From Escherichia coli 042 (GTDB taxonomy: Bacteria; Pseudomonadota; Gammaproteobacteria; Enterobacterales; Enterobacteriaceae): DNA of 64,000 bases. Under the pieces are notes generated by a model that searched no databases, was not told where the DNA came from, and saw nothing but the letters and a program-made list of their open reading frames with translations. This document shows, piece by piece, positions 1-1,170 of the stretch. The stretch lies in assembly GCF_000027125.1 (NCBI RefSeq), contig NC_017626.1; one strand, written 5' to 3'. Made by a program: the position numbers and the translations under genes. Positions within the stretch are counted from its first letter, which is position 1. Every line of letters begins with the position of its first letter.

Positions 1-257
1 ACGGGAGAAGCAGCTGTATTTTCCTGAGGCGTCGTTGTCTGGTAATCATGCGCAATCAGATAATTTTGTGCGGCTACACTATTCCCTGTCCTTTCTAAAA
101 ATCGACCAATTTTCTGATCAATTTCCGATTGCGACATTCCTGGCTGGATTACCGTTAATTCTGTCGTTGCCGCCTCAACAGTATCACCCGCAAACGCAGA
201 TGGACTTACCGCGGTAGCAACAACGACAGCCAGTAAAGACAGCTTTACAGTTTTCAT
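1..257 (-). CDS. exported protein of unknown function (partial; C-terminus beyond window start)
   Basis: ATG at 257-255 with an AAGAG-like SD upstream. My translation MKTVKLSLLAVVVATAVSPSAFAGDTVEAATTELTV... has a classic signal peptide (AFA|GD) and no stop before position 1. Absent from the ORF track because it is open-ended. Confidence 0.4.
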   Translation of the reverse strand, partial: MKTVKLSLLAVVVATAVSPSAFAGDTVEAATTELTVIQPGMSQSEIDQKIGRFLERTGNSVAAQNYLIAHDYQTTTPQENTAASP

Positions 258-623
258 GCATTTTTTCTCTTTCAAAGTAAGTCACATATTTGTTTCTATA
301 AGCAACGTAAAACGTTGTTATAAGAATTAATCTGCGTTGCAATTTAATCGAAATCTACGCCGCCATTTGTGTGATGTAAAGCGCATTTTTGTCTGGTGTA
401 AGCGTAAACACCACCAATAAGAAACAAAAAATGTTTCTTATATAAATAAAATCGAAAATCATTTTGTGCTCTTTCAATGTAAAAAAGAGTAAAGACTTGT
501 TTTGATAAGCGAAATAAATTCTGTTTCTGGACTAAACGTGAAGCGGTTCCTGATGTGTGCTAAAATGCGTTTCTTTGATAAATCTCAATTTTTAAGAGGT
601 TTACGCCAGGCAGGAAAATTTAA

Positions 624-986
624 ATGAATGAATTTGAGAAGATTTTTAATGAAATGAATCTGGACCGGGCATTGCTACCGATCCTTTTTCGTTCGAACCG
701 GTCAACAGTGTGGAAATATTTAAGTGGCGATAGTACGGCTCCTGCCTCAGCTATGTCACTGATTATGCTGTTGCAGTTAATCCAGAAACGAAACCCCGAT
801 CTGTTAGCCGAATGGTTAACGCTTTCTGATTTTACCATTCCGCCAGAAGTTTACCTGGACCAGCCTGATTACTGGAAAGGGTGGGTGTATACCCAACACA
901 AGGTCAATAAAAACGTCCTGGAATATCTAAAAAAACACTATCCGGATGAAGACCAAAAAAACATGAATAAAGGTAGTGACGAGTAA
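624..986 (+). CDS. hypothetical 120-aa protein
   Basis: ORF-track ORF downstream of an AT-rich intergenic region (260-620). No family recognised. Sits where K-12 has cueR but is not MerR-like. Confidence 0.35.
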   Translation: MNEFEKIFNEMNLDRALLPILFRSNRSTVWKYLSGDSTAPASAMSLIMLLQLIQKRNPDLLAEWLTLSDFTIPPEVYLDQPDYWKGWVYTQHKVNKNVLEYLKKHYPDEDQKNMNKGSDE

Positions 987-1009
987 TTTGCCAATGCCAG
1001 TTAATATAG

Positions 1010-1170
1010 CGGAGGCGGCCTACGATTCGGGCGCAGACTTCCAGGGTATGATAAGACGCGCCCGCGCCGCATCAGGCATCAGCGCATAACCGCCGGATGC
1101 GGCGTAAACGCCTTATCCGGCCTACGGTTGAGTGCAGTTTTGTAGGCATGATAAGACGCGTCAGCGTCGC
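1010..1170. repeat. cluster of REP/BIME-type palindromic units
   Basis: Several copies of the enterobacterial REP motif (e.g. gccggatgcggcgtaaacgccttatccggcctac, tgtaggcatgataagacgcg...catcaggc) lie between the convergent 120-aa ORF and ybbJ. Confidence 0.7.

Follow-up and report, generated by a model that had tools for sequence, protein, structure and literature searches.

In Escherichia coli K-12 the genes cueR and ybbJ are convergent, as the original prediction for the DNA studied here had stated, and their stop codons abut (K-12 locus L004 9401/9402), leaving a junction of length zero. In E. coli 042 the left end of a 64,000-nucleotide (nt) stretch of DNA (hereafter the window, meaning the whole stretch; RefSeq assembly GCF_000027125.1, contig NC_017626.1) carries other genes beside ybbJ, which raises the question of what these genes are, what they do, and whether they stand in the place of cueR. 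Window 1-1171 is the right-hand third of E. coli O-island 29 (OI-29), or S-loop 43, a known accessory island whose insertion point falls precisely where the convergent genes cueR and ybbJ meet at their stop codons. The island pairs a gene for a predicted trimeric autotransporter adhesin with a divergent gene for a 120-amino-acid (aa) protein, which, judging from its modelled helix-turn-helix (HTH) fold and its gene position, is probably the local regulator of the adhesin. Taken jointly, insertion of OI-29 between cueR and ybbJ and control of the adhesin operon by the HTH protein form the best explanation of this locus, and one that we hold with moderate confidence. The features at this end of the window are as follows.

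1-257, minus strand: 5' end (85 codons) of the predicted trimeric autotransporter adhesin gene, an allele of z0639/gmrA/ECs0548, with its ATG at 257-255; the gene runs off the window
258-623, no strand: AT-rich divergent control region of 366 bp, 32% GC, between the adhesin operon and the 120-aa gene
624-986, plus strand: 120-aa gene, orthologue of z0640/ECs0549 (WP_001001643.1), encoding a predicted Xre-type HTH DNA-binding protein with a C-terminal helical extension
987-1171, no strand: cluster of repetitive extragenic palindromic (REP) sequences and bacterial interspersed mosaic elements (BIME), 58% GC, with REP repeats in both direct and inverted orientation; forms the island's right end
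1172-1630, minus strand: ybbJ (NfeD family), the first core gene right of the island, convergent with the 120-aa gene

Identity and boundaries of the island

OI-29 was described in enterohaemorrhagic E. coli (EHEC) O157:H7 EDL933, with the genes z0638-z0639/gmrA-z0640 (Yang et al. 2018, PMC5826968), and S-loop 43 was described in O157 Sakai, where ECs0548 is listed as a "Saa-like protein", an adhesin missing from K-12 (Ogura et al. 2007, PMC2323221); z0638-z0639/gmrA-z0640 and ECs0546-ECs0548-ECs0549 are equivalent names. Published primer arms link window 1-1171 directly to OI-29: the forward arm of the z0640 deletion primer is window 586-623 exactly (primers from PMC5826968), and of the OI-29 deletion arms one matches the end of cueR and the other window 1181-1219, with 1 mismatch. 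Twenty-three complete E. coli genomes are 100% identical to window 1-1200. In strain C4, which is identical over this interval, the gene order is cueR(+), a 67-aa gene(-), a 140-aa lipoprotein gene(-), a 594-aa YadA-like open reading frame (ORF)(-), the 120-aa gene(+) and ybbJ(-). BLAST places the DNA that is extra relative to K-12 at C4 locus L001 17794-21171 (3378 bp), with its right end at window 1171, and K-12 homology picks up again at the ybbJ stop codon, so that the junction between island and ybbJ is window 1171/1172. Both what the island is and where it ends are thus direct observations.

The C4 island is longer than that of O157 (3378 bp versus ~2.64 kb) because its adhesin has 594 aa rather than 338 aa, with an extra stalk segment that includes a 369-bp tandem duplication. 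The adhesin alleles also differ at the other end of the protein, the N-terminal region seen in the window, and in C4, being only 46% identical to the O157 protein.

The original prediction had described positions 1-1170 as an AT-rich segment, suggested by its composition to be horizontally acquired, that holds an unrecognised convergent 120-aa ORF, a ~360 bp AT-rich intergenic region and a divergent signal-peptide gene that leaves the window. The intergenic region and the divergent gene are as it described them, and the 120-aa ORF is a real gene that did not turn out to be a core gene at this position in K-12, but it had already been published as z0640 of OI-29. Horizontal acquisition agrees with the accessory status of the segment, its lower GC, its absence from K-12 and the presence of the same cassette at other sites in other genera. 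The AT-richness applies to the 32% GC spacer and less to the 120-aa gene (41.6%), and not to 987-1171, which is GC-rich (58%); the core flank has 52-57%. It should be noted that the island itself is already known, and that as a genome feature it is an ordinary, catalogued accessory element.

The adhesin gene

The N-terminus encoded in the window, MKTVKLSLLAVVVATAVSPSAFA/GDT..., was judged by inspection to be a Sec signal peptide of residues 1-23 (window 257-189) ending in an AxA cleavage site. In C4 the gene continues as an uninterrupted 594-aa ORF (L001 18473-20257) that ends in a YadA_anchor domain (PF03895). This region lies beyond the window edge and was read from the full-length C4 (594 aa) and Sakai (338 aa) ORFs, where the domain scores E=1e-11 and 45 bits, the cut-off being 22.7. 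This anchor is homologous to the translocator anchors of Hia and AtaA. Between signal peptide and anchor both proteins have a coiled-coil stalk, which in the C4 adhesin contains a 369-bp x1.9 tandem repeat, and the passenger is hypervariable, both among strains and among genera, with little cross-genus similarity outside the last ~120 residues. This domain make-up, signal peptide plus YadA anchor, is that of a predicted trimeric autotransporter adhesin (type Vc). Deletion of OI-29 left adherence to HeLa and Caco-2 cells unchanged (Yang et al., PMC5826968). The adhesin is often mis-annotated; for instance, the NCBI annotation pipeline PGAP annotates no more than the C-terminal 350 aa of the intact 594-aa C4 ORF.

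The 120-aa protein and its linkage to the adhesin

The 120-aa gene starts at ATG 624 and has a good ribosome-binding site, AGGA, 8 nt before it. Its product is conserved at the same length and with 61-96% amino-acid identity across several enterobacterial genera, it is folded confidently by AlphaFold 2 (predicted local distance difference test, pLDDT, 89.7), and its O157 counterpart z0640 was detected by RNA-seq at 43.5 reads per kilobase per million (RPKM; Table S3 of PMC5826968); the ORF is therefore not a chance ORF. The AlphaFold 2 model used was built on a 20-sequence alignment that includes more distant homologues, a first run on 13 close homologues having been poor (pLDDT 57). The model is a helical bundle with an HTH (helices 2-3), and its predicted five-helix HTH core superposes at 1.4-2.5 A over 51-63 residues on Xre-type structures (Foldseek). 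The basic and polar residues R23, N25, R26, S27, K31 and Y32 are invariant and belong to the turn and to the predicted recognition helix. For the conserved C-terminal half (residues 70-116, motif SDFTIPPEVYL..PDYWKGW) no structural match was found. With just 19 representatives among 1.84 billion the family is very small, and it does not extend beyond Enterobacterales. Nothing above threshold was found for the 120-aa protein in Pfam, NCBIfam, PHROGs or PADLOC, and a profile search of PDB sequences returned only chance matches (E>=0.29); below threshold, matches to MqsA recur in 5 of 20 members and to Xre-like-HTH in 4 of 20.

As a new observation, homologues of the 120-aa gene are divergent from a YadA_anchor gene in seven of the eight loci that had enough flanking sequence, a set spread over eight genera and different chromosomal sites; the seven are in E. 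coli, Pseudocitrobacter, Lelliottia, Hafnia, Kosakonia, Citrobacter and one metagenome contig. On one more, short contig a signal-peptide protein beside the homologue is cut by the contig end. All three OI-29 genes of O157 are expressed, and contact with HeLa cells represses them together (Table S3 of PMC5826968).

A different role for the 120-aa protein, one that has nothing to do with the adhesin, would be that of an orphan type II antitoxin or of an autorepressor like the anti-CRISPR-associated (Aca) proteins. It would fit the best structural and weak profile matches of the protein, which include HigA2, MqsA, Aca1, Aca2 and Aca10. However, these matches reflect the generic Xre fold, PADLOC and PHROGs gave no significant match, and no gene of toxin or acr size lies in an operon with the 120-aa gene in any examined locus, its neighbours being REP elements and a convergent core gene downstream and the 366-bp spacer upstream. 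Since the recurring gene pairing is with the YadA-anchor gene, we regard this role as improbable, and the antitoxin, Aca and phage-defence readings were rejected for want of partner genes.

Candidate promoters and repeats in the spacer

The following candidate elements can be recognised in the divergent spacer.

352-380, minus strand: candidate sigma-70 promoter of the adhesin operon, with -35 TTTACA at 380-375, a 17-nt spacer and -10 TAGATT at 357-352; from a consensus scan
558-566, plus strand: candidate extended -10 element of the 120-aa gene, TGcTAAAAT (-10 at 561-566), followed directly by GCGTTTCTTTGAT; read from the sequence
292-306, no strand: GTTTC-N5-GCAAC inverted repeat, candidate operator, 35 bp upstream of the adhesin ATG
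418-440, no strand: perfect palindrome with 9-bp arms, TAAGAAACA-N5-TGTTTCTTA, candidate operator, between the two candidate promoters
523-574, plus strand: two further GTTTCT half-sites, at 523-528 and 569-574, one on either side of the candidate promoter of the 120-aa gene

Alignment of the E. coli, Pseudocitrobacter and Lelliottia spacers reveals conserved blocks within otherwise diverged DNA. The hexamers and spacing of the candidate adhesin promoter are conserved in the Pseudocitrobacter spacers, and Pseudocitrobacter, Lelliottia, Kosakonia and Citrobacter all retain TGnTAAAAT or TAGAAT with GTTTCT after it. A consensus scan for promoters and terminators did not as a whole exceed shuffled expectation (3 promoters versus 2.3 expected), so that the candidate promoters rest on this cross-genus conservation.

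The strong over-representation of GTTTC/GAAAC in the spacer is new here and is a matter of counting. Five GTTTCT/AGAAAC hexamers fall within its 366 bp, against 0.56 per kb across the window; any other 366-bp interval holds at most two, and in 5000 Markov simulations the number five was never attained. Six spacers of different genera together contain 17 such hexamers where 1.3 are expected (z=13.9). The arrangement GAAAC-N7-GTTTC occurs once in the 64-kb window, at 418-440, with 0.04 occurrences expected, and the counterpart in O157 Sakai of the inverted repeat at 292-306 is a perfect GTTTC-N5-GAAAC, the sole match in a 49-kb locus and again within the spacer. Among loci that were kept outside motif discovery, each stretch of 10-49 kb likewise has a single GTTTC-N5-GAAAC, which invariably lies in the spacer between adhesin gene and HTH gene.

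These observations are consistent with a model in which the 120-aa protein would regulate both the adhesin operon and its own promoter through the spacer sites, with one half-site placed immediately after its -10 element. Such a cassette would carry its own switch wherever it lands. We infer, as a hypothesis at the level of annotation, an adhesin cassette that is self-contained and brings its regulator with it.

Several points weigh against this interpretation. The half-sites are arranged as GAAAC-N7-GTTTC, with one GTTTC-N5-GCAAC, in E. coli and as GTTTC-N5-GAAAC in the other genera; enrichment of a motif does not by itself say which protein binds, and the motif could instead be a site for a host factor. 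One homologue of the 120-aa gene (L013) has no adhesin gene next to it, and the adhesin gene is interrupted by a frameshift or premature stop in 2 genomes with window-identical 5' ends. The window itself shows only 85 adhesin codons, the predicted full-length product being taken from genomes with identical flanks. Finally, the HTH assignment rests on predicted structure, the HTH profiles (HTH_3, HTH_19, MqsA, Xre-like-HTH) reaching best E values of 0.007-0.2, all below their gathering scores.

Distribution and mobility of the cassette

The 120-aa gene with its spacer is present in 1415 of 5426 complete E. coli genomes (~26%), always as one chromosomal copy. In Pseudocitrobacter (L006-L008, ~3700-6336) the same four-gene cassette, consisting of the HTH gene and divergent genes for the trimeric autotransporter adhesin, a lipoprotein and a 67-68-aa protein, has qmcA and fetA on its two sides, at a place only one gene pair removed from the cueR/ybbJ site of E. 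coli; the neighbourhood is shared and the junction different. The cassettes of Citrobacter and Lelliottia adjoin resolvase or recombinase genes, and those of Hafnia and Kosakonia are at yet other chromosomal sites. The occupation of different sites across genera supports horizontal mobility. The annotation of the E. coli island (C4, Sakai) includes neither an integrase nor a transposase, and no convincing target-site duplications were found at the island junctions.

cueR and the flanking DNA

The cueR gene is whole (135 aa) in C4, BEC1-S17-ESBL-09 and GF60, all three 100% identical to window 1-1200, and in O157 Sakai; in the first three its end lies 3 bp ahead of the island's left-most gene and ~2.2 kb left of window base 1. 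The original prediction had placed the foreign genes where cueR is expected, and the island does sit between cueR and ybbJ, but the look upstream in window-identical genomes finds cueR intact beside it and not replaced. That foreign genes took the place of cueR and left the strain without a copper regulator at this locus, as its invisibility in window 1-1170 could suggest, is exceedingly improbable, given that all three inspected genomes and Sakai keep it by the island and that the window merely starts to its right.

To the left of cueR, in DNA outside the window, C4, GF60 and Sakai carry a giant SiiE/BapA-like adhesin gene (C4 L001 1-17389) and, after it, ABC and HlyD genes for type I secretion, the last of which overlaps the start of cueR; K-12 has glsA-ybaT in place of this locus. 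With the SiiE/BapA-like locus on its left and OI-29 on its right, cueR is sandwiched between two adhesin islands.

To the right, window 1172-2070, which holds ybbJ and the 3' end of qmcA, is unusually diverged, being 88-93% identical to K-12 and Sakai, and cueR also is only ~95% identical. The identity of ybbJ to K-12 is 88-90%, and identity returns to ~98% by window 2070, a gradient which suggests that alleles were exchanged along with the island. Further to the right, at C4 L001 29601-30206 (window ~9600-10200), ybbP is directly followed by mnmH and the rhsD-ybbD-ylbG segment of Sakai is missing; C4 is colinear with the window at 97.7-98.5% identity.

The REP/BIME repeats at the right end of the island span window 987-1214 as two REP pairs ~100 bp apart, the last copy overlapping the ybbJ stop and C-terminal codons. 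A search of window 1-2700 against Rfam gave RF02564 (naRNA4, REP325-type) at 1045-1122(-), with 66.2 bits against a gathering score of 59.5, along with two weaker sub-threshold copies; these REP-type matches were the only ones, and no small RNA was found in the AT-rich spacer. The REP/BIME stretch accounts for the 153,232 genome-wide BLAST matches of window 1-1200.

GmrA, a published activator with the sequence of an adhesin

The adhesin gene of OI-29 has been studied under the name gmrA. Yang et al. 2018 found gmrA deletion mutants to be less motile, with complementation, and reported binding at PfliA by electrophoretic mobility shift assay (EMSA) and by chromatin immunoprecipitation with quantitative PCR (ChIP-qPCR), together with a CDD-predicted DNA-binding domain; gmrA expression responded to osmolarity, pH and temperature, and deletion of z0640 had no effect on motility (PMC5826968). 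The description of GmrA as a transcriptional activator has been repeated in reviews up to 2024 (PMC9387321, PMC10877973). The published gmrA deletion arms flank exactly ECs0548 in Sakai (L005 26276-27292), and the cloning primers encode MKTVNVAL... and ...GVGYSF, both termini of the ECs0548 protein. The published activator GmrA is therefore the signal-peptide, YadA-anchored protein.

With its Sec signal peptide, its coiled-coil stalk and a YadA_anchor above the Pfam threshold, this protein would be expected to be exported to the outer membrane. The only matches of GmrA that relate to nucleic acids were weak coiled-coil ones to SMC and Rad50, far below cut-offs. On sequence grounds the motility phenotype is more plausibly indirect, since it can arise from changes in the envelope, but the published EMSA and ChIP data would fit a direct effect. 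In the literature that we searched, no paper ties GmrA to the autotransporter nature of the protein. As the sequence of GmrA is that of a predicted exported outer-membrane adhesin, the mechanism of the motility phenotype deserves re-examination, which may be relevant to work on EHEC and on extraintestinal pathogenic E. coli (ExPEC). The new content of this analysis is hence the hypothesis of a pairing between Xre-like regulator and adhesin, and a flag on the published function of GmrA.

Comparison with known systems

With Aca2 (7VJO), the C-terminal domain of MqsA (3FMY) and HigA2 (5J9I), the 120-aa protein shares its predicted five-helix HTH core and its small size, and as with Xre-type regulators its gene adjoins the promoter region that it would control. 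In contrast to Aca2, MqsA and HigA2, it has no significant sequence similarity and no toxin or anti-CRISPR partner.

The other two genes of the cassette invite a second comparison. In C4 the 140-aa protein has the lipobox LLAGC and its gene overlaps by 4 nt the 67-aa gene, which codes for a membrane protein; the lipoprotein has no match among PDB sequences and no Pfam match, and the cassettes of Kosakonia and Citrobacter are without its gene. SadA-SadB of Salmonella, described by Grin et al. in 2014, is reportedly a trimeric autotransporter assisted by a small lipoprotein dedicated to it. As in SadA-SadB, a small lipoprotein gene is tightly linked to the OI-29 adhesin gene and points the same way, although in OI-29 it lies downstream of the adhesin gene and not upstream. 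By this analogy, a helper role for the 140-aa lipoprotein is a speculation.

The adhesin itself resembles YadA, Hia, Saa and UpaG/EhaG in its N-terminal signal peptide, coiled-coil stalk and C-terminal YadA_anchor, and differs from them in being short and in having no recognisable YadA-like head domain. It also stands apart from other trimeric autotransporters in having been published as a transcription factor, GmrA, and not as an adhesin.
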